Part shown: positions 12,717 through 62,316 of the stretch, one piece after another | Layout: each line of letters begins with the position of its first letter | Numbering within the stretch: the first letter of the stretch is position 1 | Source of the DNA: Blasia pusilla | Lineage: Eukaryota | Length of the DNA stretch: 64,000 nucleotides | Assembly: GCA_050084515.1 (NCBI GenBank) | Contig: CM114271.1 | Location: 26,908,001-26,972,000, forward strand | Direction: 5' to 3' | Made by a program: the position numbers and the translations under genes | The notes under the pieces: generated by a model | Database searches by the model: none | What the model was told of the DNA's origin: nothing | The model's input: the letters and a program-made list of their open reading frames with translations, nothing else

Positions 12717-19968
<7,252 letters not shown>

Positions 19969-35951: not shown

Positions 35952-35992
<41 letters not shown>

Positions 35993-36044
35993 TGAATAAA
36001 TGAAAAGATTTATCGTCCACGGGGACCCCACAGGACCATGGGAC

Positions 36045-36077
<33 letters not shown>

Positions 36078-36958: not shown

Positions 36959-38945
36959 CAATTCGAAACGAGAAGCGTCCTACTATAACAGCTTCCGTCA
37001 CTACTATTCCTCCACAAGTCACACAATTCACAACCAGCGGAGGGCTCTCTCGTCCGTTTTTATATTCCCCTCATCACGAAGTACACACAGGCTCCGCATC
37101 GACGAAGTACACCTGAGAAATTTGAAAAAAGTGCCGGGCAACCACCGCTTTTGCCGTGGAACCTGCACCGGCTCCCTTTAACTCGAATGATGGCTGAGAA
37201 ATATTAGACGGACGTTCGGCCCCAGAAAGTGAATCACAGACTTGCACCTGTCTCGTGAACCGCAACCCGATAGGAGAGATGAAGAGGTCTACTACCCCTA
37301 CCCCACAACAAATAGTAATCCAACCGGGGCTTGTCTGTCTGTTCACCCGCCTGCCCGCCTCGCTGCGTGCCCCTCTCCCTGCCTACGGGTTCTCTTCTCT
37401 ATACTAGCCAGCGGCATTCGCATGGAAATGTGCTACAATCGATCGATCGATCGATCCCCACCCGCGACAGAGAAGGCTCTCCGGTGTGACGGACGCTACA
37501 GACGAGACCCAGAGTCCGACAGCCAGAAATGGAGAGGGACGGACGGAGGAGTATGAGGCGCGCCGAGAAAGACGAGAGTCGCGGGATTCTTCCGGATGGA
37601 GAATCTTCGAGCGAGCGAGGGCTACTTCCTTGGGTTACGTGTTTTCATGAGATGCAGCGACAATTGCTCAAGGGATTCCCCGCCTGGCCACAGCGCTGCA
37701 TCAGAGGCTGCTTTGTCTGGGTGCTGCCAAACACACACACACACAAGCAAGCTGGCTGGCTAGCCCGGCTGAGCTCGCGGAGGGAAGCGGGGGGAGTAAA
37801 GGAGGAGGAGGAGGAGGATTGCTGTGACAACTGTCCGCTGCTGGCCGTTACTAGGCATATGCACTATCTTGCAAGCATCGCGGCATTCCTTTTTTTCCAC
37901 CTTCCGTCATCAATTCGTCACCCACCTCTCCCCGTTTGATCTCCGTCCTCTCTGCCGCTGCCTCTCACGCATTTCCACCGGTACAGTACCGACACCCTCT
38001 CTCCCTCCCTCCCGGCTCTCTTGTGAAAACCACAAACTACTCTTCCTTTCGTATCTCTGATGGGGTTTTCCATCGAGCGTTTTTATTGAAGTTTATCTTC
38101 CCTCTTCCTCCTCCCCCGAATTCAAGTCGGCGACGCGTGCGCCATGTACGATTCTACCAAGTTGGCTCCCTTTGCGCAAACTCGCACTTATGTCGTCTAC
38201 GGTATTTTCATTTCATTTCATTCCTGAAAGTGCTTCAGGTACGACGTAATCGCGCAAGTTCCCTCTCGGATAGAGCGCTCACCTCCCGGCTCTCCGTCCC
38301 CGCGGCCATCGAAGGATTTCGCGTTACCGGATGTCGATCGGGGACGAGTGTGGACAGGGATGAAAACGTTCGTTGTTTGTCACCTCGCGACGCGACGACC
38401 AACATTCCTGCCGCGCGTGCTTCGGTGGGGAGAAGAGAGGGGAGTTCAGGGGCCCGAACCTTGCACGTGCTGACGAGCTCAAGCCTCGACGCCACCAAGA
38501 AAGCCTGGGGCAGTTGCTGCCCGGACGATCGTGCTGGAAGCCCAGGAGTGCTCGCTGTGCTGAGCTGGACCGTCCTCAACGGTATTTTCTTGCCGAGGAC
38601 AGTGGTATAGCACTACTCCCCCCACCTGCCTCTGTCTCTCCCTCCTCTAGGCCCGCTCCAGACTCCAGGGACCCTCCCTCCCTCCAGAGTCCAGAGCAGT
38701 GGGGGGATGTCTTAACTCCATCGCTAAAGTAGGGCTCTCAACGACTCTGGAGGAATACCCATGGACAAAGGCTGCGCTCGCTGAAATGAGTGAATGGAAT
38801 GAAGTGATGTGAAGTGAAATGAAATCATAGGAAGAACAGGATGAGGTGAGGTGGGCCCCAGCCGTGATTGCTATGTTTGTCACGGATAGAATGTGCGCGT
38901 CATCGCTCAGGACTCGAGAAACTCGTCGGAGAGTCGCCGTTGAAT

Positions 38946-42589: not shown

Positions 42590-45500
42590 CACTAGAAGAA
42601 AAGTATGGTTTTCATAACTTGATTAAGAATGACTTATGCATAAAATGACGAAAAGTATAACTCTATTGGTTTAGTCATATTGTATGACTTGGAAAATCAA
42701 ATGAGTCATAATGTTATGACTCTTATAGTATTATAAAGGACTCTGTCATATACAAGTCATATCTCATGACTAGCTCGGTAATCTAAGTCATTTTTTCACA
42801 CATATGTATTAGAAGACATAATTTGGAGAATATTATAAATACGATTATATATATAAATTATATAACCAAAACAACATAAAATCAACCCTAGGAATTACAA
42901 TGAAAAAAGGGCATTGAAAATTGAAGAAAAAAAACAAAAAGAAAATATAGATTTCTTGGATAATGAAGGAATCCATACTATGTTATAAAGTTTCTATCAT
43001 TTAATAGGAATATGGAACAATTTCAATACATATTAACAATATAGCACTATTTAATATAATCATAATAAATATTAACCCAGAGTTTGAATAAACAATCAAA
43101 TTAGAGCAAACACTAAATGTTTTGGAGTAGAGATTTTGAATTCAATCCAACAATATTCATACTAAAAAGTGAATAAGAAAATATGTTAAAAAATGCAGTA
43201 AAAAAGAAATCCCAAATATCAAACTGAATGAAAATGAACATCATGTTTAAATATTAAAAGATGATGAAAAAAAACCAATCTTAGTTAATTTACACATTTA
43301 ATTCATTGTAATATCTCCAAAGTCAGAAAAAATAGATTTTAGGTTATATTTATTATTCTTTCAGATTTAAAACTATTAAACATCATGATGATATTATAAA
43401 AAAAAATTTCAACCATAATTTGTTTTAGTCTACTCATATTTTGTTTAAGGTTATTATTTTTCAAATATGAAAATTATATTTTTTCTTCTCTAATCTCTAA
43501 ATCTTAGAGGAGGGTTGAATTGTGGAGAGCATGAGCTAAGAGCACTACACGCCAAGATTTGAAAAGGGCCTAATGCCTAGGGCACGTGACAAAGGGCGCG
43601 AGAGTGCTCGTAGAAGGGAGAGCGGCAACCAAGAAGAAAGGGGTCACGCAGGGAGTTGCGCTTTAGGATGTGCGTGGCAGCTTGTTGTTGATCTGAGGCA
43701 AGATGCAGCTCTCACCAACGGAGACGTCGAATTCCAACTCCGACATGACATAGCATGTAGTACGATCTTGTTGATCATTGCATTCTGCACTGTGTGTTTT
43801 TTTCGCCAAGTGTACTTGGCGTTCTTTGCCGAACCCTACATCGATGCAAAGGAACTTGTCCTTACCAAGTTTACACACATCGGCTATTACTCCCAACTTG
43901 AGATAAAGAGCTTGAACGATGAGGGCTTTGTTGTCAAACTTTATCCCTTCCGAGCGCGTGCTGCAATGCGTAGATAAGGACGGATTTTTCATGGCACTCA
44001 TTTCTTCATCGTTGATTTCTAGCTTTGTGGTCGTCGATTTCTAGCTTGGTTTGCCTTCGTTTTGTCCACTTATTGTTATCATTCTTGAAATTGATGTATT
44101 CACTCACTATTGGCCTTTCCCGTTTTACGTTTTTATCTCTTCTACCTTCCGCAACTTCGTACTCGTTCGTGACGGTCTTTTTTCCTTCGACGGCCTTTTG
44201 TTTCGTTCGTGCAGAGCTTGCAAATCCCACAAGTCAACTTTTGAGATTCCGCTTGCTCCCTTGCAGTAGTCAAGAGCTGGATCATCCTTCTCCACAGTGT
44301 ATCATCGCGAGTTTCCATGACCTGTGAATCTTGGACGCGCTCGAAAAGGTTGAATGAACCTTACAATAATAAGCATCAGGATCGTCCCCTTAGTTCCCTA
44401 AACGCATCTCATCGTCATTCATTCTCACACGCTTCGATCCCTGTTGATAATTTTTTGCCTCTTCAATTTTTACTTGACCAATTTTACTAACAGACGGACA
44501 AATCAATCGAACTCTCGATTCACTCCGAATCTTGCTGTAGCAGCAATTCAGCTTTTCGTTTCTCTGTTCACTCATTGCAATGAGTAGACGCTGACGAGTG
44601 CGTGGGTCTATTGCTACTGGACAAAAATGTGTAGGTGAATTTCAGATTTCGGACTCTCGGATAGCGGGAGTGTTCGCGAGAGGATTGTCATGTTCTTCGT
44701 GATATTCTCCTTCGAGGTGGGGGAGCCCAAATTTTTTTGGGTCTAAATCGCGGCCGGTCAATGCCTATTTGTGGTCTCTCTCTCTCTCTCTCCTCCTGTT
44801 CAAACCCTCGGCAACATTTGAGGGTAAGATAGAGCTTCATCTCGTGGAGCCGTTCTTGCCTCTATGATATGTGGCAGCATTACCATCACAACTATCCATT
44901 GTGCACGACACACAAAAATTTTGCGCTTCTTCATGTCAACTATCAACAATCAACTGCATCCTCCTCCGCTCTTCATGTAGAGCTGCAAATTCTCTTCAAT
45001 CTCCTCCTCTGTATCTCGATTCTCAATGTATCAAGATCTCGACCTCTTTCCTTGTTATGAGTTTTGATACATTGCTTCAATTCGGATGGTGTGTTAGGAA
45101 AACTCTCCACACTCTGGGCGTCAATTTAGGGTTTACACAAGTGGATATCACAAGAGTAGTCGGCTCGAGAAAAAAAAAAGCGAATCACCGATTAATTGAT
45201 TAAATGTTAGGCATAGAGGATAGAGAGAAAAAATTGAGTTAGTGATTGATTGATTGAATGTTATACACAGAGAGTAAAGAGAAGCAATTGTAGATAGTAG
45301 AGTTATGGCGAGAAATGATTTGTCTGTTGCGTGTCTCAAGAGACTGCTTGATTTTGATCTTGGTTTTTTGTCCACTGGGAGAGCCTTACGAGGGCCCATG
45401 GGACATTCCACTCATCTCAAAATGGCAGGATAGAGTGAGTGATCTTGAGGTAGAGATAGAAGAATGGGAGACTTGAGATTTGCAACGAGGAGTGATGATT

Positions 45501-47024
45501 TAAGAATTTGCAGCTTCGGCTTACCAGAGGGTTGAGCATTGATCGAATGTTGGAGGTACACCGTGAGCAAATATTGCAGATGTGAGGTGATTAGTGGAAT
45601 CCTTTGGACTAAGAAATAAACTCTTCATCATACGAACTTCATTGCTTGTCTAAATACTAGAAATGGATTAGATCATGGAGGCCGTTGCTACACCGGGATT
45701 TTTTCTTTTAGTGTCATCGTAGTTGGCATACCAAAGCCGAAGAGAAACCAAACGAGGATCATTATGAGAATCCCAACTCGGCTTAATCCTAGATTCCAAA
45801 TCTGAAGCACATAAATATTTGTGTAGGAAGATCTATGGGGTCCCTATGGCATGATGGCCAAATTCACTCACTAATGTACGTCATTACATCATACATATAC
45901 GCTTCAAGTGCATGTAATTGCACGACCGTCATTATGTGCATGTGTACGGGTATGTTTCTATGTACAATTTGCAGGTTCACTTGATGATTCTGATCTAAGA
46001 GTCTAAGCACTGAATCACTGGAATTAGACCTGTTAGCCAATCTTGGCATGTACAATTTTGACATGCCCAAGAGTGCTATTTTCCCCGTGAGGAGATTGTG
46101 ACTCTTATCTATAAGGACTCCTCAAGTTGGGATTATATTGTACAGAGGGAAGTTATGCATCTACATATCTTTCCTCTGCACTATTGTGATTGTGATTATT
46201 GCACCCTGAACATCTCATTCACTCGCTGTTGTTGAGAGATTTTAGAGTTAACAAAGGCTAATATAATGAGAGTGCAATATGTAGCAATAATAAAACGTCA
46301 ATGTTATGATGAAAACAAAATAACTCACAATAATTGAAGTGTGAGTTTTTTTTAAATATAACTAACTCAGTCGTTTATATGACTAAGATAATCTAGACAA
46401 TAACCAAATCACTAATTGTATATTATTCATCCAATCGTTAATATAACTACTGCAACGACCATAATACCAATAGAGTCATTGCTCTAGTCATTTGTAATAA
46501 CTGAGGTAGTCACACCTACTTATTTATGACAATGATTAATGACATGATCAAGCCCCTGCTCGACTCATATAGTCATTTTGAACAACTCAATAAGTTGGAG
46601 TCATAGAATTCCATGACCCCATGAGTCATAGAATAGGACTCATGCAATTAATGATTATGACATAGTCATTTCTACCACATACGTCAAGGACTAGAGACAT
46701 TATATTAACACCTGTCGTTGTATGAGTCCTTCATGACACTGTCCTTTCTCGTAAGGTGTCACGTGGCCGCATGTGATTTGTTATTCAAATCCTACTCAAC
46801 ATGCCATGCCATACAACTACATGGAAAGTATAGTTATGACTGAGTCATTTAAGACACGTGTCATTCATTGGTGACTGTAATATCATCTTCATGCCATATC
46901 ACAAGCGGATGTGGCATGGTTTATATGACTCTAACGGTCATGAGTCATTCTTAGTCATTTACCACCAAAAATGACTCAACCAAGTCATTTACTAGAGTCA
47001 TAAAAACCAAGATTTCCTCTAGTG
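42590..47024. mobile_element. Non-autonomous CACTA (EnSpm) DNA transposon, 4435 bp
   Basis: Left end CACTAGAAGAAAAGTATGGTTTT; right end, as reverse complement, CACTAGAGGAAATCTTGGTTTTT. 3-bp TSD CAT at 42587-42589 and 47025-47027. Dense TGACTC/GAGTCA subterminal repeats at both ends. No recognisable transposase. Confidence 0.92.
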
Positions 47025-48866
47025 CATGATCTTAACCTAGGAGATACTAAACCTTGAAGTGAACCTATGAGATATTAAATGTTTATCTCAACCGAGAAGA
47101 TACTAAACCTTTGAGCAATGAGTCCAACCTACATAAACAACAAGAAAGAAAATTGAAATGAGGTTCCAAGGAATAAGCCCAACTTGCAAAAATGTCAACG
47201 AAAAGAGCGAGCAAAAGTAAGAAAAAAACTCAAAGCTACACAACATAAGGAATAGATCAACGAGGAGAAAACTGAATGAGTTGGTTGCAACAACAGGGGA
47301 AAAAAAACACGTGGCTAGCCACTACCATAATGCCACAACTTGCAAGATGGGATATGAGAATAAAGTTGTGGACTGGCGATAGGCTATCTTCACTCCACTC
47401 TACTCTTTTCCTACAAGCCCTGAGCAACTTGTAGGAAAAAAGTAGCAAAGCAGAGACAATATATGGCTCCATGCACCCTAAAGGACGGAGATAAATGATC
47501 AAGGATTTGGGAACAAGCAAATTGACCCCAACAAGATCCTCAATAATGACCAAGACTAAGTGAATCTTTTGAATTTCTAGGAATCTCCATACGTCATCCT
47601 TGAACCAAATAGAAAAAAAAAATCAATGAAAAGACTTAGTGCGAAACGGAAAAGATTCACTATAGAAGCGAAAAGACTCGAGTTCTTAACTACTATATGA
47701 CTTTGCACTTTAGATGGCTAGTATGGAAAAAAAAAATCCTATGGCAAATAGACTCCGATCGATGTAGAAGATTGGAATGAAGCAACAAGAATAGAAATGC
47801 CAAGAACACCAAATGAGGGTGTCACATCTTATTTTGACGTAGGTAGAGTTCTTCATTTGATGATTTAAAGTTAGTCAACATGAAGCTCAATTAAGTGTTA
47901 GAAGAGGGGAGGAGATCTTAGATCCAAATATTTTTGGGAAACTTATGATATCTGCATGAGCATGAACCTCATTCAGTAACATTCATTCTAGAGAATGCGT
48001 TGTTTTTGGGCGACTCTCATCACAAGTGGTGACGAGTGTGCGTTAGGTTTATGCATGGACTAGACTGATAGAGTTATTGGATACGGCTAGCTAGTATACG
48101 TTTGCGTACGCATCGTCCACACCTCTGATGGATGAACTTGATGTTGCATGAAGTTTTGAGGAGGGTCTATGTGAGAGTACAAATACAACAAGTTTCAGGC
48201 CTTATGTGACTAGGCATTGATCGACCACCATATAGTGTGGCAAGATCATCTGGAGGTACGTGGATGGTCTAGCCAATCATGGTTTCTAGACTATGAAGAG
48301 GGGTTTATGCAAGTATGACATGCCACTTGGGAGATTGGATACTACAACTCTAATCGTCGGCAATGGGGTATAGATTTAGCTACAAGTATGCATCTTTGGC
48401 ATGCTAATCACCTTACTTTTTGCTCTACACTTGAGAGTTGGATTTACCTATGGCCATTTTTCGTGATGTTATTGAGGTGCTAAACCTCGGTAGGCTTGAT
48501 GTGTGGGTACAAGCATATTCCTAGAGATTGAAAACATTTTGGCAAGTTATGCCCACCACGTTAAAGAACCTAGTAATTGCACAACATCAAGACATGTTGA
48601 GTTATGCATCTATTTGGGGAGGATGGTATCAATTGACCATCTAGAGGTTCTATCCGAGGGAACAATGTCTACATAAAGTAGACAAGGCCAACAACTTTGG
48701 ACATGATGATAGGGCACATTATTTTGAGAGTAGGAGACATTTATCTAGTGTTCTTTTGTTAGAGGAGCATACTAGTATGGTTTGGAGGGACCAAATTTGG
48801 AATTGTACGCCATGTCACCTTGCCCAAATCAATGGTACTGTTGATCCAAGCTTGGCACTAGTACTT

Positions 48867-49234
48867 TGTCATGACCATACGGATTATGTCGTAGAGTATG
48901 GTGTGCTAGTAGAGGCCATTCCTTATGTAGGACCGTAGTGGATTGGTAGAGATGCGGTTCCATACATAGGGTTGGGGGTTACTCAGTTGGGGGTGACTTT
49001 CCCAGTAGGGCCCGCTCTTAGGTTGGAGGATATAAGGTGGAGTGCACTCAAAGAACAGTCAGTTCTTTGAGTTGAGGCTGTTGCGTTGGGAGTTAGCCTT
49101 GGTAGTGAGTAGAGCTCTTGGCTATGGTGTTTCCCTCAAGCTTCGACCTAGATTCTCCCATCGTGGAGTGGGTTTGGCTCAATTGTATGTGATTGTAAAT
49201 GTGTTTTATGACAGTAGGTCTTTCACGCATTTCA
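48867..49234 (+). repeat. Terminal repeat A1 (368 bp)
   Basis: Matches 58104-58471 with about 7 substitutions by manual count. Confidence 0.95.
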
Positions 49235-50959
49235 CTCAAAGAACTGGAGTAGATCGATGGTAGCTTCGATTGTAGATTAGGAGGATCTGGTTAGGGCTGA
49301 TTGTGTACTCAGCCGTGGATGTTCGGGGCTTGTTGCCTATGTTGGAGGTGTGAATCAGGTGCATGGTTGGTTGGGAAAGAAGCGCCTTTCTGAGATCTTT
49401 CCAACGCGCTGTAGATCGCCGGATTTCGTCAAGGGAGTTGGAAGTTATCAAGCATTGAAGATTCTGGTTTGTGTTCGACAGTTTTCTGATGTGGAGAGCT
49501 TGGAGTGCGGAAGCTCTGTTGAAGTTCATCCAGATCGGGTGAGAGGTTCCTATTGCTACTTGTATTGTGATCTCATGTGAAGCTATCTGCTCGAGTGCGT
49601 GGAGCGTTGCGGATTTCTGCGTGCATGAAACTTGGCGGAAGCGCTGTCGGATTTGCGGTTCTAGAGGTGTATGAACAGCAAGTTTGTCTAATTTTTAGCT
49701 CGGAGTACGGAGCTTGGTTGTAGCTGAGTTTTTGTGGGGAGATAGCTATGGTGGTCAATTGAATTCTGATTGAAACAGATTTGATTTCGGTCACGTATTT
49801 GTGAAGTAATTTCTGATCAAAATTTTGCGGACTAGCTCAAGGTCAGCGGTTTGGTGGACAGCGGATCGGAGGGGCTGGTTGGTTGGTGACTTGTTCATTG
49901 TTGGAGACGCCTGTCCCGTTGGGGGCGCCCTGGTTGGACCTCTCTCCATAGCGAAGCATGGCGAAGCATGGCGAAGCGTGGCGAACGGGGCATGTCTCGG
50001 CGTTTTGAGGCTTCGAGGCTTCGAGGCAACTCGTGGTAGCTCGGGGCGAGTGGGCGTGAGAGGCGGAGTAAGGAGTAAGCAAGCTTGGGCGTGAGGCAAT
50101 TTTTGCAGGATTTGGGATTTGAGTTTTGCATAACTGGTCATCCATCTTTGGGCTATTCTGCCTGGAGGACGCTTAACTGCTGAGTTCTTAACTATGCCAT
50201 TGTACAGACTGTTGTAGCTCATTTGGTGCTCTTCAGAGATGTGTTAGGCGCTTTATGCATCTCAGGTTTTTGGTTGATGTACCTCTAGCGCATAGTACGG
50301 TGTAGCCTCTCCATGCAGGTGATATTTTCAGGTGCTGCGAGTTCGACTAGTACGTCATCATCGACCGGCGGAGTAGCTATTGCGTTAGAATTGTGTGGTG
50401 GGTTTTGTGGATTGGGGCACCACGTTTGGTGGATTGTGTTACCTTGATTTCCATTTGCGGTTGGAGGGTTGTCGTTGGACTTCGTATGCGGATCCCCTCC
50501 ATCGTGCTTTTGCTTGCGCGCCCATTGTTAGGGTTGACGCTGATTTCGAGTAGTGTTACTCCTGTGTGCTCCGATAGTGAGGTGGAGTGATGACCGAGAG
50601 ACCATGGGAGGCTTCTTGTAGTGATGAGAGGTTAGATTGCCTACACTCATAGCTAGTAGAGCTACAATAGTAGAGCGACATCGACGTCACTTGGGTAATT
50701 TGGTGGTGGTGCGGCATCGGCGTTGGTCATCACGGAGCTGTCGGGTGGTCTGGTTGGGGACCGTGGTGCGGACAGTGGTGGTTTCACACGGAGTGGATTT
50801 AGGTATCGGCTACCTTTTCCACTTCCGACGGTTGATGAAGAGGAGGACCAGGGTGTTCCAAACACCGAGTCTTCTACGTTGTTATCGAGTGTTGCAGCTC
50901 CATTGATTTGGGACATGGACGGTGGATATGGGGCCATGAAGGGCCCACGACGATACTCG

Positions 50960-52110
50960 GTGCAAAGTGGGCACTATTGAGTTGGAGGACTTCATGCAGG
51001 AGTTTGATACGTGGTGTGATATGCAGATGTTGAACGCCACGCGTTGTTTACACCCTTCTTGGCTTGGAAGGGTTGTTTCAAAGACTTGGAAGGACCACCC
51101 ATGGATGATTACCATGAGTTTAGGAAAGACCATGTTGCTGAGATTGAGGCGTGGAGACAATATTGGTCTCCAGGCTATGTGTCTATCACCCATGGTGGTA
51201 TTGGTAGTAGTGCTCCTACTATGCCAGCCAGCCCGACGTTGAGTGGTACGAGTACGAGCCGGAGTGGGGGTACCAGTGGAGGTACTAGTGGGGGTACTAG
51301 TGGAGGTATTAATGCCCCACCATCGTTCAGCCCGGTTGCAGAGTTCTTCAAGAAGTTGAAGAAGAACTATCAAGGATTGAAGACGGAGAAGTTGAGGAAT
51401 CTTCAGGACTTTGAGCGAAAGACTGGTGAGAGTCTTCGTGAGGTATACACGCGTATCGATGCTTGATTTCATTACCAGGGTGTGACTGAGGATCAGCGAT
51501 CCGTTTTGGTATGGGATCTTGAACAGAGATTTGCGCCGTAGGGCGTGATGCTACTCTTATGAGTGATGATTCACCCACATTGACCCATGTGTTTGCTCTA
51601 TCTCGAGAAGATTGAGCTTAACATGGTGAAGGAGAGAGTGGTGACATCCGCATTCAGTAGGGATACAACTACTACTTCTCGGGTTCAGCCGCCCACCTCA
51701 CAGTCTCGTAGTAGTGGTGGTGGTAGTAGTAGTGGGAGTCGTGGGGGGTACACGCGACCTCACTCAAGTCCTAGAGGGACATTTGTACAGAGACCATTGC
51801 CTTCATTTGCTGCCCCGCAACAAGGACAGTCATGTTGGACATGTGGAGGTGATCATGTTAGGAAGTTTTGTCCCCAAGAGGATGGGAGACGGACTTTGGA
51901 GGATGGGCCTCAGTCGGCCCCAACTCAATGTGATCATTGCGGGAGACTAGGTCATCCTCGAGAGCGTTGCTTTGATCTCCATCCCGAGTTGAGATCAGGC
52001 CGTGGCCGTGGTGGAGTAGCTCCGAGAGGCCGAGGTGGTAGAGGTGGTAGGGGTGGTAGAGGTGGACCAGTGGTTGGAGAGCCTACAGTGGCTACCCCTA
52101 CCACTACGAC
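50960..52110 (+). pseudogene. gag: gag (frameshifted in this sequence) with two CCHC zinc knuckles and an RGG-rich tail
   Basis: CWTCGGDHVRKFC, CDHCGRLGHPRERC, RGRGGRGGRGGRGG; capsid-like segment FFKKLKKNYQG...QDFERKTGESLREVYTRI. Confidence 0.85.
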
Positions 52111-52799
52111 AAGTCGACTATGGTGCCAGGATTGGCTTGATTGGAGCGGTTGGCTACTATGGCATAGATGAGGTTCGGGAGCAGGGCTTCCACCTCTTAT
52201 GGAGGGGATGATCTCTCTTATATGGCGAGTGCAAAGAAGTTGAGGCATCAGTGCAGATTTAGAGGAGCCACTCGGCGTCGAGCCACGTGGTGCTCTTGTG
52301 GAGTTGGACCCACTGAGGGGTGAGGTGGGAGGCGAGCTAGGCTTCCCAGTCATTCTTGTTGTCGAGGTGCTTAGGACTCCATCCATGGTTCCTACGCAGC
52401 CTATTGAGCCGAGTGGGGACAGAGGCATCTACATCGGCGTGTAGTAGACACGGATGCAACATCCAATGCAAAGATTGCGGATGGCAACCGGTGTTGGGAT
52501 CCCCATTTTTTTCGCCACGGAGCCGATGGCTTTAGGAGTTGACTTAGCTCCTGTATTTCGATTAGCGACCACGTTTGTGTGAACGTGGGGTGTTTCTTGC
52601 TACACGTGTTGAGGTGGATGAGGGTGTTGCGGTGGAGCGACCCTCTATGTCGAGTAGCATTGAGTACAGTGCTACTTGGCGGGCAAAAGAACGGCGAAGA
52701 TGGATGCATTACTAGCCCGGCGACCATTGATCGTGAGAGGCTCACACTGGTGTATGTATGTTGGACAACCAGAGTGGGATCTTCCGATTGGTGAATCCT

Positions 52800-53200
52800 A
52801 TAGACAGTGTATAGACCAGATAGAGTCTTGTTAGACTCGGTGCCCAACCTTGATGTTGGGAAAGGCGGCATGTATTGGTTTGGGTATTCGGAGGTCGAGC
52901 TTGAGCCTTGCCCATTCCAGATTCAAACATCACTTGAGGAGCCAATGATAGGTCTCAATTCATGACACGGGAAAAGTTTTCTATCTGATTGAGACCAGAT
53001 CATGCGACCGATAGCTCCCGGTTGGGAGTATCTGCGGTAGTCACATCACCGAGTCGTATGATGTACTAGTTGGAGGAGCGATTGTACCCGATGGGTTTTC
53101 AGATGGATTATCGGATCGAGACGGCGTCTTCTGAGACCTGGTTGGCAGTCCGGGATGGACGTATGAGCCAAGTTCTGTGAGATTTATTTCGGGGCTCGAC
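52800..53200 (+). pseudogene. Retropepsin aspartic protease domain (frameshifted)
   Basis: VLLDS(G)AQP at ~52824; YDVLVGG at ~53058. Confidence 0.7.
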
Positions 53201-53544
53201 CAGAGGGTCTTCCCCAACAAGGTGTTAGCATCTCGGGCTGGTTTTAGTGGAGTAGTCACTTGGCCAGAGACTTTTGGAGGGTAATGTTTCGCTATGGATT
53301 CTTCATGCATGAGGAGGTAGAGGAGGTCCCTATTTTTGAAGCAAAGTGGCATCCTCATCATTGGATGTGCCACTTTGGAGTTCAGCGGTGCACTACGGCA
53401 GAGGCGTCGCCTAGTGCAGAGGCTTGGTGTGAGGTGTTATACCTCACGAGGAAGAGGAGGCCCCACGGCGGACTCCTACTTCTGGTCGATTAGGTTATCC
53501 CCTTTGGATACTACACCCATTGTATGGCAAAGTATCCGCCGGAG

Positions 53545-54500
53545 GGCATTTGTGTGTTAGATCTCTTTGGTGGGATTTAGCACCTGGTTTGGCGGCAAGA
53601 TGTTGCAGGCGGTATTCTGTGCGGAGATACGTGTATGTGGAGCGAGATGAGACGGCCCGAGAGAGTCTCATCCCGACATATTGGTCGATTGATGCGGAGA
53701 TATCCGAGTTGTTGCCGCCATCGCCTATTGGGTGGGTACCGGCGTGTTTTTACCATCATTCATTGCATTGTTGGGGCGCAAGACCTTGAGAGGGTTGGTC
53801 CTGTGGATTTGGTGATTCTTTGGATAGCCATGTCGTGGTCATACACGTCCGGTCGTGGTGAGGGATTACATGACCCTAGGTCTCGATTGTTTTGGGAGAT
53901 GTTACGGTGTTACGACATCTTCAGTTCATCAGCACGTGCTCTAGCTTACATTCTCGAGAATGTTCCATTGTTGGGTGACACTCGGACCCGGATGATGGCG
54001 AGTGTTCATGAGGTGCGGTCTTGGATTGGACCAGCGGTGTTGTTGGATGCAAGGTCATGAGTTGGCTCGCGTGCACATCGTCCACGCTTGTGGTGGACAA
54101 ACTTGTTGCCTAGGAGGTTCTCGTCGAGCATATGATGCAGTGTAGCGGGATCCTCGCCTTACAGTGGATAGTATCTTGGATACAAGGCGACTTTCTCAAG
54201 TGGTGAGGGTTATTGATCGGTCACCCATGGCAGTGGTGAACCGTGTGGGCCAGCCTAGGATGGCACTACCCACATTTTTGAGTTTTCCCGCGTCACATGC
54301 CTACATGGAAGGTGGTCCTGGGCTTGTATGGGATTCTCATGTGCGACAGTTGGTGGAGCCTAACGTTGATGAGAGAGAGCGTGCGATGGGATTTGCTACT
54401 AGTGTGATAGCGGTTGCTTCTATTTCTGAGGCTTCACGACGTCATGTGTTGGGTCAGGCCATGGACCTGAATTGTTTGACTTGGATTTTGAGTCTTGGTA
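53545..54500 (+). pseudogene. C5 DNA cytosine methyltransferase domain (DNMT3-like) within pol, frameshifted
   Basis: Motif I VLDLFGGI (~53554); motif II YVYVERD; motif IV VDLVI..G(W>stop)PC with PC at 53828-53833; SRLFWE; motif VI YILENVP (ENV at 53956); motif VIII SRAHRPRLWWTNLLP (54067-54111); motif IX ERERAMGF; motif X RRHVLGQAM. All in canonical order. Confidence 0.88.
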
Positions 54501-54849
54501 TGGCGAGCAGCGTCGACTTCGGACTATGTCGTGGGTCTTCCACCCCGTGTAATGAGCTCGATGGCTACCGGGGCCGGTAGAGGCATCGGTGGAAGCGAGA
54601 GAGTAGTATTTTGCATCCTTGGAGTAAATGGGATGTAATGGTGGGCATGTGGAGTTGGTTGCTCATCTTTGGTGGAGGAGTTATTTGCTCGAGATGATGG
54701 TGTAGCTAAGGGTGTACCATCTTGTGAGGGGGTTATGTGCGACCAATGGCATCGTCCTCTCCCTCTAGTGTGCGGTGGAGGAGACTTGGGAGCCATTACT
54801 TGGGCCCAAGCTACGGGAGGTGAGAAACGACGCTGACACAGCGGTTCCT

Positions 54850-55600
54850 ACGTGCTTATAGGAGTTGTTTTGCCTTTAGCATGAAGGAGTTGGGTTCTCT
54901 GGTTGGACCCGGTATCACGGATTGATTTGGCTAGTGATACGCCAATCTTCCGTCGTCCCTACCGATATAGTGATATGGAGAGGGACTTGATTGAGTAGGA
55001 CGTTGGACCTTTTGGAGGCTGGATTAGTGGAGTTGTCGCATGGAGAGTATGCATCGCCCATGTCATGCTCGCTAAAAAGGATATGCATGGCAACTACACG
55101 GATAGGCGGATGTGTGGAGATTACCGTCTATCAATCGGCAAACCAAGGCCGATAGGTATGCCATGCCTACACCTGAGGAGATCTTTGATGTGGTGGGACA
55201 GCAAAGATTTTCAGATTTTTGGATCTTCGGGGATACCATCAATTGCCGATTCGGGAGAGTGACAAGGCCAAGACAACATTTTGGGGTGTCAACTCTCATG
55301 GCAAGGATTGTTTGTACCGGTGGAAACTCTTACCCTTTGGGTTGAAGAATGCACTGCCGAAGTTTCAAAGAGTGACGGACAGGATCCTAGCAGGGTTGGA
55401 TTTTGTTCGGTGTTACATTGATGATATCTTGGTGTTGAGAACACGGTGGAGGAGCATCGATACATTTGCAGATGGTGTTTGAGCGGTTGAAAGCTCATGG
55501 TCTACGTTTGCATCCGGAAAGTGTAAGTTCTTCCATGAGGATGTTGAGTACTTGGGTCATGTGATCTATCCGGTGGTTTGGGAGTTCAAGTAAGCAAAGG
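54850..55600 (+). pseudogene. pol: Ty3/gypsy-type reverse transcriptase (frameshifted)
   Basis: RRMCGDYR, YAMPTPEEIFD, DLRGYHQ, LPFGLKNA, catalytic YIDD at 55414. Confidence 0.92.
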
Positions 55601-55609
55601 TGGAGGCTA

Positions 55610-56200
55610 TTGCACTTATTCGCGTCCGTAGATGTGAGTAGAGTTCGAGCATTCATGGGATTGGCGAACTACTATCGGAGGTATGTGAAGGGATTTAGTG
55701 CTATGGAAAAGCCTTTGAACCAATTGCTGAAATCAGATCAAGAGTGGCATCGGGAGATGATCGGGGAGAGAGCTTTTGTGGAGCTTAAGGCCAGTTGGTG
55801 GCGGTGCCTATCTTGAAGAGACCTATCGAGGGTGCCCATTCCGATTACACACGATTGGAGTAGGTTGGGACTTGAGCGGTGTTGACACAACATGATGATG
55901 AGCACATGGAGTTTGTGGTGGCCTATGCAAGTCGTTCGAATAATGCAACGGAGTTGCGCTATAGTTCATATGAGGGAGAGTGCTTGGCAGTAGTGTGGGC
56001 TGTGGCACACTTTAGGTGTTACTTGTTTGGCACCCAGTTTACCCTTATTTTCGATCACCAACCGCTCAAGTGGTTGATGGAGTCGGACAAGCTTACGGGG
56101 GAAGCTTGCACGGTGGGCTCTTATCTTACAGAGTATGACTTCCAGGTGGTTCATAGACCTGGAGTTGCCAACCTTGATGCTGATGGGTTGAGTAGGAACC
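55610..56200 (+). pseudogene. RT connection and RNase H domain
   Basis: RAFMGLANYYRRYVKGFS, HTDWS, VAYASRS, YEGECLAVVWAVAHFRCYL, DHQPL, NLDADGLSR. Confidence 0.9.
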
Positions 56201-56589
56201 CATGTACTAGCCAAGAGGATACAACAGGGGCTAGATGGCATGGCGAGGTTGATGAGGAGATGGTGCCAGGTTGGCATGCATCCGCCTTTTTATGTTGGTT
56301 AGGGGTGGACTCTAGTATGGAGGACCACGTGATATCTTACTCTAGTCGAGGGTAGATGGCCACCTTGAGATCCTAAGGTTGGAGATGGTGGTACGGATCA
56401 GCGTGATATTCATGATGATGCGTTGGTGTTGGAGTTCCTATGGACCAGAGGATGCCAGGCATAGTGAGTGCCAAGGAGCGAGACCGTGTTCTTCAACGTG
56501 CTAAGAGGTATCGATTGAGGGAACACATATTCTCAGCGTGTGGGAGGATGGTAGAGTACGAGTAGTGCCACATTTGGCTCGAGAGAGCG

Positions 56590-57650
56590 CAGCGACATGC
56601 CCATGAGGAGTTGGGACATTTTGGGGTAAAGCGACGTATAGCTTACTCCTTGGCAAGATTGGTGGCGTGGCATGCATACTCAAGTGCAGCAGATTGGTGT
56701 CACGTTGTATGGTTTGTGACCGGTGAGGGCATCATTTAATGCCCCTACACCACAATTACACCCCTTTCCTATTATGGGGTTGGGTTACCGTTGGAGTGTG
56801 GACTTTGCGGGACCGTTACGTTGGTATGACGTCATCATCGATATGTGTTGGTGATGGTGGAGCACTTCTCCAAGTGGATTGAGTTGGTGGCATTACCGGA
56901 CAAGGCGAGTGAGGAACGGCGTATGCGTTCTGGATAGAGTGCTTAGTCATTTTGGTGCACCAGCTGAAGTCTTGACCGACCAGGGTCTGAGTTTCGGGTG
57001 AGTTTCAGGTCTTGTGTGACAAGGCGTTGATTGATCATCGGACCACGTCTCGAGATCATCCGAGGCGGATGGTTTGGCCGCGTGTGGTTCAGGCGGTGAA
57101 GAGGGCATTGCGCAAGTATGGCCTCTGAAGGGCATCTTGAGACAGGATATTCGGTTGTCATGGTTAGCCATGGGGTATAGGTTCATCGCCAAGCATCCTT
57201 GGCTTCCTTCTCACCTTATTTTCGTTATACGGCCGAGAGATGCAGACTTGCCAAAGAAAGAATTGTCGGGAGTCTAGTGAGGTGGTGAACCTTGATGACC
57301 CAGAGATGTGGATGAGGGTGTGTTCTCTCGAGCGGAGCTCTTCCAGGAGAGTTATGCCAACGAGCCTTTGAGAATCTTGCCATTGCTCAACACAGGGGAT
57401 ACGTTGCCGTATGCAACCATTCGAGGTGGAGGTTATCGACCATCGATTCAGAGGTTCCATGTGGGGACTATGTCTATTTGCAACAGATTGCCCGACAACG
57501 TTGGATGTGACGGCATGCCGCACTATTTTACGAGTCGCGAGGTGTTAGCTTCGGAGTTCTCATGTTAGAGGGTCGTGATGGAGTTTTTGGAAGGACCATG
57601 TGCGTAATTGTGCGCCATGTCATCTTCCAAATGTGGATGGTCTTGTTGAC
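56590..57650 (+). pseudogene. DDE integrase with HHCC zinc-binding domain (frameshifted)
   Basis: HEELGHFG...CMVC, WSVDFAGPL, EHFSKWIELVAL, HFGAPAEVLTDQG, DGLA...VKRALRK. Confidence 0.88.
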
Positions 57651-57683
57651 CCAAGCTTAGCCATGATACGTGCTAGCTTGAGG

Positions 57684-57825
57684 TGCATGTTGTGTGGGTC
57701 TCATTGGTAACGGCTCGTATGTTGGTGTGTGATCGGTGTTCTAGGGGTTGGCACATGATGTGTTTGACTCCACGTTTGGATGTTGTTCCTACTTTGGAAG
57801 GTGGGTTTGTCCTCGATGTACTTAG
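57684..57825 (+). other. PHD finger at the integrase C-terminus (two frameshifts)
   Basis: CMLC...MLVCDRCSRGWHMMCLTPRLDVVPT/GRWVCPRCT* gives the C4-H-C3 pattern with W before the last CxxC. Confidence 0.85.
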
Positions 57826-57995
57826 GAGAGGTAGATGACTTGATCTTTGCATGATATGGATTACGGATGTGCGACTAACGATGGGGCAACCTAGCACCCG
57901 GCCTTCGATTCGGGCACCCAAGAAGGTGTATAGCATGTAGTAGATGTATAGGGCTACCGGGAGTTAGAGGACCTAACCCTTGATTAGGGGGGCGA

Positions 57996-58577
57996 GTTGT
58001 GGTACACTTGTGTTTGTGGATACTCGTCTATGTTATGTATGTATGTGAGTATGGTATGTCGGCGATGTATGTTGTATGACGATGTGGGATTCGCACGACA
58101 ATTTGTCATGACCATACGGATTATGTTGTAGAGTATGGTGTGCTAGTAGAGGCCATTCCTTATGTAGGACCGTAGTGGATTGGTAGAGATGCGGTTCCAT
58201 ACATAGGGTTGGGGGTTACTTAGTTGGGGGTGACTTTCCCAGTAGGGCCCGCTCTTAGGTTGGAGGATATAAGGTGGAGTGCATTCAAAGAACAGTCAGT
58301 TCTTTGAGTTGAGCCTGTTGCGTTGGGAGTTAGCCTTGGTAGTGAGTAGAGCTCTTGGCTATGGTGTTTCCCGCAAGCTTCGACCTAGATTCTCCCATCG
58401 TGGAGTGGGTTTGGCTCGATTGTATGTGATTGTAAACGTGTTTTATGACAGTAGGTCTTTCACGCATTTCAGTTGTGGTACACTTGTGTTTGTGGATACT
58501 CTCGTCTATGTTATGTATGTATGTGAGTATGGTATGTCAGCGATGTATGTTGTATGACGATGTGGATTCGCACGACA
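57996..58577 (+). repeat. Right-end composite B1 (57996-58100), spacer att, A2 (58104-58471), B2 (58472-58577)
   Basis: B1 and B2 are near-identical 105/106-bp repeats. A G-rich tract agggggg(c)gag immediately precedes B1. Confidence 0.95.
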
Positions 58578-60709
58578 ACTTGTAGGCTTGCAGTACATGT
58601 TGTGTGGATTAGCTAGAGGCATAGCCAATCTACTAGTCTACGATGGTTGTTAGAGAGGATGGCACATGATATGTTCCATGCCAAATTTTTCTAGAAGTCC
58701 TCATGGATGATGGTTGTGCCCAGATGTATAAAAGATAGGTGGTTAGACATTTAGGCTAGTTTGAGTGGGATGGATGACAAGGCAATTAACGATGGGACCA
58801 CAAGAGCATCTGACCTTCTTGTTCTTAGCATCTTAGAGATGTATATCACACGTACAAAGAGACAAATGACTATATGGAGTTAGAGAGACGTAAACACCAT
58901 CGCGTCAATGGCATAGAGAGTCAGCGGGTTGTTCGGATGTAACTTCGTCTTGAGATGTCAGATGAGGTTGACAACATGTTTGTTGTGTTCGGAACGTCGT
59001 TTATGACGATTTTCCTATTTTGGTTTTAGTCTGTCAGGTGCCCCGTTGACCGAGTCAATGGTCACCCGGTAACTTGTGCGCGCAGGTTACCCTTGGTAGG
59101 GCTATTTTTTGGGGAAGAGCCTTTTGGCTCTTCCCAATGGTATAAGAGTGAGGAAGATGGCTTTTCCAAGCCATCTTGCTCATGTTCAGCCTTAGGAGCG
59201 TCTCTCTTGCATAGACGTGTGTGGATGTGTAGGAGTTAGGGTGCTAGCGTATGTTAATACCTATAAGTATTACAACTTCTAATCTACTTCTATGTGTCAT
59301 TTATAGTTCATCGGTCAATATTGATGCTTAATCCATTATGCTTGCCACTTCTTCATGACCACTATCTACATCACTTAAGGCCCAAGATACACTTTCACAA
59401 TGCATATATGAATAGCCCAAACCAAGAGGGAATTCATTAGGAACTAAACTCTCATAGGTAGAGTTTCAATCTCTCTCATGCTCTACCTCTTGATCAATTA
59501 CGTCTTGATCTCTCTCTCTCTCTCGATAGTGGGTCAAGGGGACCTCCCTAATCCCAACCTATAATAGTGGATCAAGGGAACTTTCCTAAATTATAAATTC
59601 AACTACTCAAAGTAGGTAACTTACATGAAATGGTAAGTTCCTCAATTTAACTCTAAATAAGCCCAAAACAAAGGTAATCTACACACTCAAGTTACTCTAG
59701 TCTCTCATGGATCATCTTATGACCCCACCCCCCACTCAATTACGATTGATTTCCCAACATAAGGCTTCTTAAATTTTTTTCTATCGAGTTGACATTATAA
59801 TCAAAGAGGAATCACTTAGAATACTTACAAATTGCTTGGAAAGACCAAATATTGAAAATTGAAATTGGGGAAGAGGGATGATTCACATAAAAAATTGGCA
59901 AAAATGGCTTTGATTAGTGTTGTAATGATCCGATGTGTATCGAATCCAATTTCAAGCAAGCTAGGAGGACCTGTTTATCTTTGTAGCACTAGCTACCATG
60001 ATTAAAGGGACACGACATATGTTGGAGGAACAAGATGAAGCACTCCAGTAGGAAGAGGGGTTTTAGCTCCGTTAGGGGAAGACATGACAACATAGTGGCA
60101 ATAATAACATGGAAAAAGATTTTTTTTAAAAAGAGGATGGATGGAATGAGGGTTGAATAGATGAATCTACTCAATGCAAGCTAAGAGGATGAAGTGGCTA
60201 TGTACAAAAATATATGACCCATGATCAATCACAGTCGCTCACCCCATTGTTTGCAACCAGAGTTTATTGACGCAACTTAGAAAAATACTTTGCTCATTAG
60301 TGATTGAAAAATTAAAGAGATTAAGAGAGAGACATGGACTTATTTTTTGAAAAAGAACAATGGAGGAGAACATAAACTGATATCGGGAAAATGGCTTGGT
60401 ATAATGATTTCACAAGTTTTTTAAAAAAAAACTAGTAATTCAAGAGTGTAAATTGGTTTTTTTTTTCTCTTCTAACTAATAAGTTATCCATAAGGGCGTA
60501 CGCACATACCCTTACTGGCAACTTATTAGTTAGAAAGACCTTCTCTTGATAATTTTCTATTTACTACGTGAGAGACATCTAAAAAAAAGAGGACAACAAT
60601 GCACGTGTGAGGCCATAAGGGAATGCATCCTCTAAACTAATTTAGATGATTAGAACAATCTCTTGGACTCTTGCAGAGATAGCATTTTATGGAACCGGAT
60701 ACTAAAAAT

Positions 60710-60740
60710 ACTAGTATGATGCCCACGCTATGCATGGATG
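60710..60740 (-). mobile_element. Helitron-like 3' terminus
   Basis: Minus strand reads ccatgcatagcgtgggc-atcata-CTAG|t, the same pattern as at 21142. Confidence 0.45.
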
Positions 60741-62316
60741 AGGGGAAAAACTTTTTCATCCTTTAAATCTTTGGTCCTCTTAATTTAACTACTTAAGTCT
60801 AACACATATCCACAATAGAAGAAGTTTGAAAAAATCGATTTTGAAGAATTTTCTGATCTCATCCTCTCTTAATAATATACTTGTATATACTCCTCCATAC
60901 CACCATACTATTAGGGGTTTAACATGGCACACAAGTCTATGGGAGTTTCATATCCACCATATGAAGGCAGAAACTATCATAAAGCAAGAGGTTTGGCAAA
61001 GGAAAACCCCGGTAAATAAGCAATATGGCGTAAGTCAATAGATGGTTTCGGATCCTCGTTGCAAAACGAGGACTACATGATCTTTAAGTCTAAGAGGTGA
61101 TATATTTTGCAAAACGAGGACGTCAAAGTCTTTCAATTTAAGAGGTGTTGTATTTCACGCAAAGTGCGAAGTAAATAGTCAAGGAATATGATTGGACGTC
61201 CGAAAGTGAGGAGGTGAACATCTTCCAAAAAGTCATAAACATCCGACTGCAAGCATTTATTGCCTGTAAGGGCAACTTCAACACGAGCAGCCTCGCCCGT
61301 CAAATGGACCTAAAGAATGAGCAAGAGAATTCAAACTCAAATTTCCGTGCCCGCACCCTACAACCGACCCTTCTACCCTACCATCGACATTTGATAACAT
61401 GCAAGAGGCTTTGATATTTATCGATCAAATATAAATTTTTCACCTGCCCAAACCTTGTTACCCGACTTATAGGCAATAATTGGGAATATCAAAGATCACC
61501 CTCAAAGGAATAGCCTAAGTGAAGGTATAAGACCCGAGATTAGCCTTTATTTTCTTATGGAAGAAAGGGGTCAACAATTTCATAGAGAGACTATAAAATT
61601 TAGAATTATGAAATACATTTATTACTAGAAACTAATCCAAAAAAAATGAAAGGAGAACTTGAAGCCCCTCCGAAATATCAAACGGGAAGTTAAAGAGCTA
61701 CCCATTTTGGACCCAAGAAAACTCCGCTAGGCAAGTCGAGGTGACCATGAACTCCCAGTTAGGGGATCTAGTAGTAAGATGTTTATATGTTTCGCATCTC
61801 CCTCCTCCGTCACCCCGCATGTCACCACCCTCTCCTCCACCATGTTAAGCTCAATCTTTTCAAATAGAACAAACACATGGGCCAATGTGGATGAATCATC
61901 ACTCACAAGAGTAGTTCAAAAATCCACAAATATAAGATGGGCAAGACCTCCCTGACCATGAATTAAATTCGAGATGCCATGGGGATGGCAATATGGAAGT
62001 GGACCAAAAGCCATCCAAGGAAGATTGTTTGGGGTTCCCGAAGGTCCGCAAGTTGTTCCTCGTCGCACAGGAAAGGACCGCAAGCACTCATAGTAATCCT
62101 CAAGGGCGGTTGCCATGGATTTCAACTTGCTAGAGGGAAGAATAGATCACCGATGGATAGAAAACAGCGCCAATGGACACAAAACCTCGGGTGAGATGTC
62201 TCACTTTACCGAAATCCAGAAGTCGCCGTTGTTATAAAGAGATGGGGATCCCCACAAAGAAGTCGCAATGGCGTAGTTGTCCCAACAACAACTACGCATT
62301 CAGAACATGCCTCCAT

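Follow-up and report, generated by a model that had tools for sequence, protein, structure and literature searches.

A decayed DNMT3-like methyltransferase domain in a split-repeat Ty3/gypsy-type retrotransposon of the liverwort Blasia pusilla and in its bryophyte relatives

Transposons that bear the host's own silencing enzyme present a paradox, and they have been documented so far solely in dinoflagellates and in one charophyte alga. The closest described systems are KnitGypsy-Dnmt3 of Klebsormidium nitens and SymbioDIRS-Dnmt3 of Symbiodinium (de Mendoza et al. 2018, Nat Commun 9:1341, PMC5890265). In the main text of that paper the repeats of SymbioDIRS-Dnmt3 are given as 'A-coding region-B-A-B', and the Klebsormidium element is described as having a DIRS repeat structure but Gypsy domains; this main text, which deals with Klebsormidium and Symbiodinium, makes no mention of Marchantia, liverworts or mosses. 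An excerpt of a 2026 preprint names 'streptophytes (Gypsy-DNMT3)'. Our literature search found no description of a Gypsy-DNMT3 family in land plants, although supplementary trees, which lay outside the search, may hold such sequences. The subject of this analysis is a 64,000-nucleotide stretch of Blasia pusilla DNA (GCA_050084515.1, contig CM114271.1, positions 26,908,001 to 26,972,000; hereafter the window, in which all coordinates are counted). An original prediction, made from the letters alone, had placed a DNMT3-like DNA cytosine methyltransferase between the protease and the reverse transcriptase (RT) of a retrotransposon in this window and had known of no characterised land-plant case, as our literature search bears out. 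We are highly confident that positions 53489-54505 are the dead methyltransferase domain of a degenerate element copy (48867-58577), which belongs to a bryophyte branch of the streptophyte 'Gypsy-DNMT3' retrotransposons. The domain and its motifs, as placed by alignment to P0002, the closest relative, are as follows.

53489-54505, plus strand: DNMT3-like C5 cytosine methyltransferase domain, dead (frameshift-aware alignment)
53560-53582, plus strand: motif I
53822-53839, plus strand: motif IV, with PC kept, the Trp codon before PC turned into a stop, Gln replaced by Arg, and flanking frameshifts
53956-53964, plus strand: motif VI (ENV)
54067-54102, plus strand: motif VIII (SRAHRPRLWWTN)
54371-54394, plus strand: motif IX
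54449-54466, plus strand: motif X

The pieces that the prediction had joined are visible in a three-frame translation of 53400-54700. The frameshift-aware DNA alignment counts 16 frameshift events and 3 in-frame stops within the domain, and 259 of 326 codon-matched columns (79%) are identical to P0002. The motifs stand in the order I, IV, VI, VIII, IX, X, which is unpermuted and is the order that had been predicted, and they are intact in relatives. The predicted extent, 53545-54500, was rightly positioned and slightly too narrow. With this damage the window copy is dead and unable to methylate anything, and the earlier suggestion that the element could methylate its own cDNA, new insertions or the host does not apply to it. 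Scanned alone, the window pieces reach just 10.6-11.2 of the 22 bits that PF00145 requires (E 0.25 and 0.37), which counts against the assignment and is, taken formally, the outcome that the prediction had named as refuting it, and a PDB sequence search with the window's own fragments gave no significant match. Both results would suit a one-off capture of a host DNMT3 fragment, a host pseudogene lying inside a transposon, or a chance resemblance of motifs. The low score of the raw copy is, however, due to decay and not to chance. The same read-through that misses the Pfam cut-off, used as a protein query with X at stops, found 33 homologous proteins (E 3e-56 to 8e-3), 26 of which carry PF00145, and an exhaustive phmmer search gave 171 cluster representatives at E<=1e-3; the segment is present at 80 loci; it occupies the same slot between protease and RT in Marchantia, Sphagnum, Closterium, Mesostigma, Klebsormidium and other proteins; and the identity to P0002 emerges once the frames are followed. 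These observations rule out all three explanations, to which we give a vanishingly small probability, and uphold the prediction that the segment is not a one-off insertion.

The relatives show a family trait. Among the 33 homologues, 15 are from Marchantia polymorpha, 2 from Calypogeia fissa, 2 from Sphagnum and 14 from others, and the phmmer members include Klebsormidium nitens (GAQ93235.1, our P0093), three Closterium strains and Mesostigma viride. PF00145 was above threshold in 4 of 7 proteins scanned (P0008, P0010, P0011 and P0030), at 35 bits against a cut-off of 22 in the first three and at 35-43 bits in close relatives, and it was present in 37 of 40 aligned relatives. A scan of metagenome contigs, run with an alignment of closer relatives (the more diverse alignment had no conserved stretch), confirmed 99 of 275 candidate stretches as relatives, and the 80 loci were kept from these. 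Public-run contigs from three organisms span the whole internal region, the DNMT part included, and one contig of 2,746 nt runs from gag through protease into the DNMT. Contigs of one run that is presumed to be of RNA reach part of the DNMT, a coverage that carries no information on expression. The window element aligns with loci L059, L041 and L063 over ~7.4 kb at about 76% nucleotide identity. A search of the ESM Atlas added solely the label 'PF00145, Streptophyta'. The methylase is a heritable part of the element, kept by selection.

The unpermuted, DNMT3-like character that had been claimed for the domain was borne out in sequence and in predicted fold. Against PDB sequences, P0002 matched DNMT3A best (6e-12), and a six-sequence profile matched DNMT3A at 1.8e-17, then DRM at 8.8e-12, then M.HaeIII at 2e-6; the full ranking was DNMT3A, DNMT3B/3C, tobacco and Arabidopsis DRM, followed weakly by M.HaeIII, DNMT2 and M.HhaI, and neither query found a DNMT1 or CMT (chromomethylase) chain at E<=1. 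The structure was modelled on P0002, not on the window copy; AlphaFold with a 40-sequence alignment gave pLDDT 92.1 and pTM 0.89 (a six-sequence version, pLDDT 48.7, was not used), with a methyltransferase fold predicted across the whole domain. Among the Foldseek matches listed for this model, all the top ones were catalytic domains of DNMT3A/B/C, with a best E of 1.6e-18 and, for isolated domains, TM-scores of 0.80-0.84 per target length over ~325 aligned columns. By this ranking against solved structures, in sequence and in modelled fold, the predicted domain is closer to DNMT3 than to DNMT1, CMT, DNMT2, DRM or the bacterial enzymes. It resembles the catalytic domains of animal DNMT3A/3B/3C in being best matched by them, in motif order and in the short region between motifs VIII and IX; it differs in sharing just 20-24% identity with them, in being embedded in the element's polyprotein, in the absence of PWWP and ADD from Pfam scans of the transposon proteins, and in that its activity is a prediction. 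Plant DRMs belong to the same wider DNMT3/DRM group and give the second-best PDB sequence matches, but they are circularly permuted whereas the transposon domain is not, and just motifs I to ~VI align, to the C-terminal part of DRM (residues 227-349 of 357).

The element around the domain is a 9,711-bp Ty3/gypsy-type retrotransposon at 48867-58577. It was scanned with Pfam in three frames over 49235-58104, and gag, protease and integrase were added by tblastn with relatives. Its internal features, apart from the methyltransferase, are these.

49235-50914, plus strand: long leader between terminal repeat A1 and gag, beginning with the conserved CTCAAAGAACT
50915-51997, plus strand: Gag with CCHC zinc knuckles, decayed (tblastn with residues 1-354 of Marchantia P0008, 50% identity, E 2e-87)
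52800-53100, plus strand: aspartic protease region (open reading frame 52804-52965 against P0008; the active-site DSG reads DSV)
54719-54745, plus strand: site homologous to the conserved stop of the family; no stop in the window, which reads through a shorter, altered stretch
54909-55566, plus strand: reverse transcriptase, decayed (PF00078 E 1.7e-9 at 55195-55566; tblastn matches from 54909)
55861-56136, plus strand: RNase H of Ty3/gypsy type (PF17917 E 4e-23, PF17919 E 4e-15)
56660-57137, plus strand: integrase, zinc-binding region and DDE core, decayed (tblastn with P0029 and P0032)
57716-57793, plus strand: PHD finger at the C-terminal end of the integrase frame (PF00628 E 0.003, below cut-off)

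The open reading frame at 51584-52171 holds two CX2CX4HX4C knuckles, and in P0008 the protease occupies residues 629-720. Residues 1098-1241 of Sphagnum P0029 (its rve domain) match 56713-57137 at 63-73% identity, and P0032 matches 56660-57832 by tblastn. The PHD finger, below cut-off in the window, scores 35.5 bits against a cut-off of 24 in L059 and E 1.3e-9 in P0032. L059, a better-kept copy, reads gag, CCHC, protease, DNMT, stop, RT (PF00078), RNase H (PF17917), integrase (zinc domain PF17921, then core PF00665) and PHD (PF00628), and the gene order of the family is accordingly Gag, protease, DNMT3-like methylase, stop, RT, RNase H, DDE integrase, PHD. The predicted position between protease and RT recurs in the window, in L059 and in the relatives. 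PF00589, the tyrosine recombinase, had no match; in its place the element has a DDE integrase. A primer-binding site was sought after A1 and not identified, and the leader (~1.7 kb) is mostly without a match in related loci.

In one respect the predicted layout has to be revised, for the DNMT had been placed inside the pol region. We surveyed 81 sources (the 80 loci and the window) for a stop between the two domains; 39 contained the two anchors, namely motif X and the YRSCF motif with which RT begins. In every one of the 38 anchored loci an in-frame stop (27 TAG, 11 TAA) lies between DNMT and RT, always at the homologous site 42 codons upstream of the RT anchor, although the number of independent stops is smaller than 38 because some loci duplicate one insertion. 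The divergent L058/L062 and L031 likewise have a TAG between DNMT and RT, and in L058 this TAG is the sole interruption of a frame of 2,416 codons. In Marchantia, the gene models P0005, P0008, P0009 and P0010 terminate shortly after the DNMT. Because the in-frame stop cuts it off from RT, the DNMT has to be assigned to the reading frame of Gag and protease, and the RT-bearing part of pol does not include it.

The ends of the element were equally informative, and are arranged as follows.

48863-48866, no strand: left target-site duplication ACTT, the same four bases as at 58578-58581
48867-49234, plus strand: repeat A1, left terminal, starting TGTCATGACC; this start is conserved in L041, L059, L063 and L071
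57986-57995, plus strand: polypurine-tract-like run (AGGGGGGCGA) directly before B1, conserved in the same four loci
57996-58100, plus strand: repeat B1, ending CGCACGACA; 95.6% identical to the B2 region 58471-58583
58101-58103, plus strand: 3-nt spacer ATT at the palindromic B1/A2 junction, GACA-NNN-TGTC
58104-58471, plus strand: repeat A2, matching A1
58472-58577, plus strand: repeat B2, the right element end, ending ...CGACA
58578-58581, no strand: right target-site duplication ACTT, matching 48863-48866

A1 is 98.1% identical to A2 over 370 bp (against 58102-58471), with 7 substitutions and no indel. The left end is thus A alone and the right end B-A-B, and the classical test for two identical long terminal repeats (LTRs) finds none: the element is not a classical LTR element but has split repeats. 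The layout A-coding-B-A-B is complete in the window, L041, L059 (the same insertion as L071) and L063, and partial in L006, L056 and L073. The family shares the end sequences T[G/A]TCATGACC... and ...CGCACGACA, with TG...CA termini, and perfect 4-bp target duplications, which are characteristic of a DDE integrase, flank 4 of 4 independent insertions (ACTT, TCTC, CATA and AAGG). The window element lies inside an older related element, and excision in silico keeps that host element in one frame across the junction solely when exactly one ACTT is retained; the one-ACTT empty site gives a single high-scoring segment pair to the C-terminal part of L059 (45.5% identity, E 5e-61), whereas with two copies of ACTT or none the match splits into two frames. 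The prediction that a target-site duplication bounds the element is therefore confirmed. TG...CA ends, 4-bp duplications and a DDE integrase together argue for integrase-mediated insertion of the permuted A-coding-B-A-B form. The internal B1/A2 junction, a palindrome of GACA and TGTC around a spacer of 2-3 nt that varies among copies (AT, GC, GC, TC, ATT), resembles two element ends joined head to tail, and a circular or concatemeric intermediate may lie behind the permuted form.

How does this family compare with known systems? With KnitGypsy-Dnmt3, as presented in the main text of PMC5890265, it shares an unpermuted DNMT3-like domain in the polyprotein of a Gypsy-type element, DIRS-like A-coding-B-A-B repeats together with Gypsy domains, conservation of key catalytic residues, and purifying selection on the domain. 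Marchantia P0008 and Klebsormidium GAQ93235.1, which may be one of the published KnitGypsy-Dnmt3 copies, are collinear over protease, linker and DNMT (29% identity over 569 aa, E 2e-54); this collinearity and the shared repeat layout substantiate the suspected kinship with the Klebsormidium elements. Unlike the alga, the present host is a land plant, a liverwort, and relatives occur in other liverworts and in Sphagnum. The conserved stop, the 4-bp duplications and the C-terminal PHD are documented for the bryophyte family. With the DIRS, Ngaro and PAT-like elements, SymbioDIRS-Dnmt3 as set out in that main text included, the element shares split direct repeats of the form A-coding-B-A-B; unlike them, it has a DDE integrase with a zinc-binding domain and no tyrosine recombinase that we could find, and it has TG...CA termini and 4-bp target duplications. 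Canonical Ty3/gypsy elements have the same order of protease, RT, RNase H and integrase, the PF17917/PF17919 RNase H, a DDE integrase, a polypurine run before the right repeats, TG...CA termini and a short target-site duplication, but the present element carries an extra enzyme domain, its ends are not identical LTRs, and its stop follows protease and DNMT instead of lying between gag and pol. A chromatin reader at the C terminus of integrase is shared with chromovirus-like Ty3/gypsy elements, as a PHD here and as the chromodomain given for chromoviruses in excerpts of the literature. New here, for a bryophyte family, are the A-coding-B-A-B ends having TG...CA termini and 4-bp duplications, the stop in 38 of 38 loci, the integrase PHD and the selection on the DNMT.

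This selection was estimated from pairwise Nei-Gojobori ratios of nonsynonymous to synonymous substitution (dN/dS) over the loci, with codons containing stops skipped. The medians were as follows.

DNMT: 0.57 (75 copies, 2,542 pairs)
RT: 0.43 (50 copies, 1,081 pairs)
RNase H: 0.36 (41 copies, 672 pairs)
Gag: 0.42 (32 copies, 437 pairs)
Protease: 0.61 (53 copies, 1,319 pairs)
Integrase: 0.43 (30 copies, 411 pairs)
Gag-protease linker: 0.86 (43 copies, 889 pairs)
Protease-DNMT linker: 0.84 (66 copies, 1,968 pairs)

The comparison among copies that had been proposed at the outset thus puts the DNMT (0.57) below the linkers (0.84-0.86), which shows that the predicted enzyme has been under purifying selection. 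For the DNMT the ratio declines with distance, from 0.87 among the nearest pairs to 0.49 among the farthest, with a fit of dN = 0.155*dS + 0.091, as is expected from neutral decay after insertion atop purifying selection along active lineages. Several facts temper this result. The pairs lack independence, and certain insertions are represented by two loci; the DNMT ratio exceeds those of RT, RNase H, integrase and Gag; only 4 of 38 frameshift-free DNMT regions are also free of stops, and most related loci are dead; and long open frames are kept solely in L031 and L058.

The weaker constraint on the DNMT than on the core enzymes would also be expected if the domain were kept for a role other than C5 methylation of DNA, such as binding or methylating the element's RNA or serving as a structural part of the particle. 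In the main text of PMC5890265, the Klebsormidium domain gave no DNA methylation in yeast, and RNA methylation is raised there for the DNMT of LINE elements. The same text, however, reports a yeast negative for human DNMT3B, an active enzyme. Moreover, the conserved parts of the domain are its catalytic and S-adenosylmethionine motifs. Of the 80 loci, 75 retain the catalytic Cys and 73 retain ENV, and 40 relatives show little or no variation at W138, C140 and Q141 (motif IV) or at E183 (ENV). The match between the predicted fold and DNA-bound DNMT3A/B also extends along the entire domain and takes in the stretch that separates motifs VIII and IX. We therefore regard a role other than DNA methylation as quite unlikely.

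The repeats of the window copy differ by ~2% (A) and ~4% (B) while the DNMT alone has 16 frameshifts, and where the copy departs from related contigs it is enriched in G-to-A and C-to-T changes on its own side. Because the repeats are ~98% alike and yet the coding part is full of frameshifts, the damage probably predates the insertion, and a defective lineage would then have been moved in trans by working relatives. The contrast between 16 frameshifts per kb in the DNMT and indel-free A repeats calls either for such amplification in trans or for homogenisation of the repeats. The family is very numerous in at least one organism, of which 212,640 contigs match the internal region, 60,053 of them with 99% or more similarity to the window copy.

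For the family's functional members, a life cycle may be proposed. The methylase would be made as the tail of an abundant Gag-protease polyprotein, with RT, RNase H and integrase made solely through read-through of the conserved stop. Packaged with the element's RNA, it would place 5-methylcytosine in the cDNA that the element has just made or in the fresh insertion, such that a new copy may arrive already resembling host-methylated DNA, and the PHD finger would steer integration by reading histone tails. A bolder reading is of an ancient streptophyte integrase lineage, spanning Mesostigma, Klebsormidium and Closterium to liverworts and mosses and still under selection, which would combine a methylase before a leaky stop, integration of a permuted A-coding-B-A-B form and self-methylation of cDNA before insertion; the palindromic junction GACA-NN-TGTC stored in every copy would point to a circular or concatemeric intermediate cut by integrase. 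We put this forward tentatively, as a possible reading that may well be wrong in one part or another. If true, the methylase, the permuted integration and the self-methylation would together form a life cycle undescribed for LTR elements with a DDE integrase.

A number of observations sit uneasily with the proposed life cycle. The domain is called 'DNMT3-like' from its ranking against solved structures, not from a rooted tree. In the one published assay of this lineage KnitGypsy-Dnmt3 did not methylate in yeast, a result that its authors, in the main text of PMC5890265, call inconclusive. At the stop, the main family has the context TAG/TAA-CAA-CCC with an ATG three codons downstream. A full read-through context consists of CAR-YYA after the stop; among the 39 sources scanned (38 loci and the window), just two, L058 and L062, have TAG-CAR-YYA. 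The stop may therefore serve termination and reinitiation instead of read-through.

Position in the Gag-protease frame would mean that the DNMT is made in excess over RT and integrase, and this excess, with the abundance of the family (212,640 contigs in one organism), may be read differently: the chief targets of the methylase could lie in trans, in the host genome or in rival transposons, so that it would reshape host methylation or silence its competitors. Accidental activity on the host genome is raised as a possibility in the main text of PMC5890265, in which the methylome of K. nitens is nonetheless reported as not unusual despite such elements. The idea is a conjecture from sequence, and Pfam scans show no nuclear targeting domain next to the DNMT. 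We think it unlikely that such action in trans is the main role of the enzyme. Self-methylation of cDNA, the reading that we tentatively prefer, and its rivals can be approached experimentally. Liverworts and mosses contain the family in abundance, and among them is Marchantia polymorpha, which is genetically tractable and has well-studied methylomes, and Marchantia hence offers an experimental system for what a transposon gains from its own DNMT3, with testable handles on expression (the methylase before the stop), integration (the split repeats and duplications) and targeting (the integrase PHD). There is also a practical consequence for annotation: many bryophyte gene models labelled 'DNA (cytosine-5)-methyltransferase' are transposon genes and can inflate counts of host DNMT3 paralogues.

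In an unrooted DNMT tree the bryophyte copies form their own well-supported clade, apart from the copies of Klebsormidium, Closterium and Mesostigma. This tree contains transposon copies only and is midpoint-rooted, and the placement of L063 in it is void, its row being mistranslated across a frameshift (end branch 2.76-2.89). The link to the origin of bryophyte DNMT3s that the prediction had suggested is a conjecture. The moss and liverwort domains (P0015 and P0029 of Sphagnum, the window, Marchantia) lie in one tight clade with short branches, and the C-terminal piece of the window shares 65-75% identity with Sphagnum proteins and 77-80% with Marchantia and Calypogeia proteins. Such short branches could reflect slow evolution or horizontal transfer between bryophytes. 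A second architecture, RT, RNase H, DNMT, integrase, PHD, with the DNMT between RNase H and integrase, was seen in P0032, P0101/P0192, P0111, P0143, P0150, P0168, P0181 and P0182; together with seven others these proteins form one 15-row clade in the DNMT tree (SH-aLRT 99). Either the domain moved within pol or it was acquired twice.

The coding strand of the window element, L041, L059 and L063 has markedly more G than C and more T than A (GC skew +0.25 to +0.26, AT skew -0.10 to -0.15), and CpG observed/expected in the four is 0.55-0.76 (48867-58577 for the window). Since the window copy and the three full-length loci all show the skew, it is a property of the family and not of the decay of this copy.

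The older element into which the window element is inserted is an AT-richer relative, and the insertion lies in its coding region, between its integrase and its PHD finger. Its two recognisable parts are these.

48263-48862, plus strand: older, more decayed related element, part between integrase and PHD (P0032, P0101, P0111 and P0150, E 1e-7 to 5e-14)
58582-58730, plus strand: continuation of the older element, its PHD finger (PF00628 E 0.018, below cut-off)

In three-frame Pfam scans of the flanks 45001-48866 and 58584-61003, this sub-threshold PHD was the sole match. A weak DNMT-like match in the older element at 47949-48179 (E 4.5e-5) was set aside; it overlaps, in another frame, a weak integrase-like match at 48007-48264, and proteins with the DNMT between RNase H and integrase did not confirm it.

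Elsewhere in the window, a gag piece of a related element lies at 61816-61914 on the minus strand, 90% identical to 51551-51650 in reverse orientation, and a protease-like piece of a related element at 24380-24733 on the plus strand. The window also has three host gene exons. One at 35789-36979 on the minus strand belongs to a paralogue of delta24-sterol reductase, with 82% identity to Riccia fluitans and 80% to Calypogeia fissa, and with lycophyte and other plant proteins at <=71%, which by itself assigns the host to the liverworts. The other two, both on the plus strand and recognised by eye from translations of open reading frames, resemble the N-terminus of a glutathione-reductase-like flavoprotein (12357-12959) and an RRM RNA-binding protein (1530-2075).

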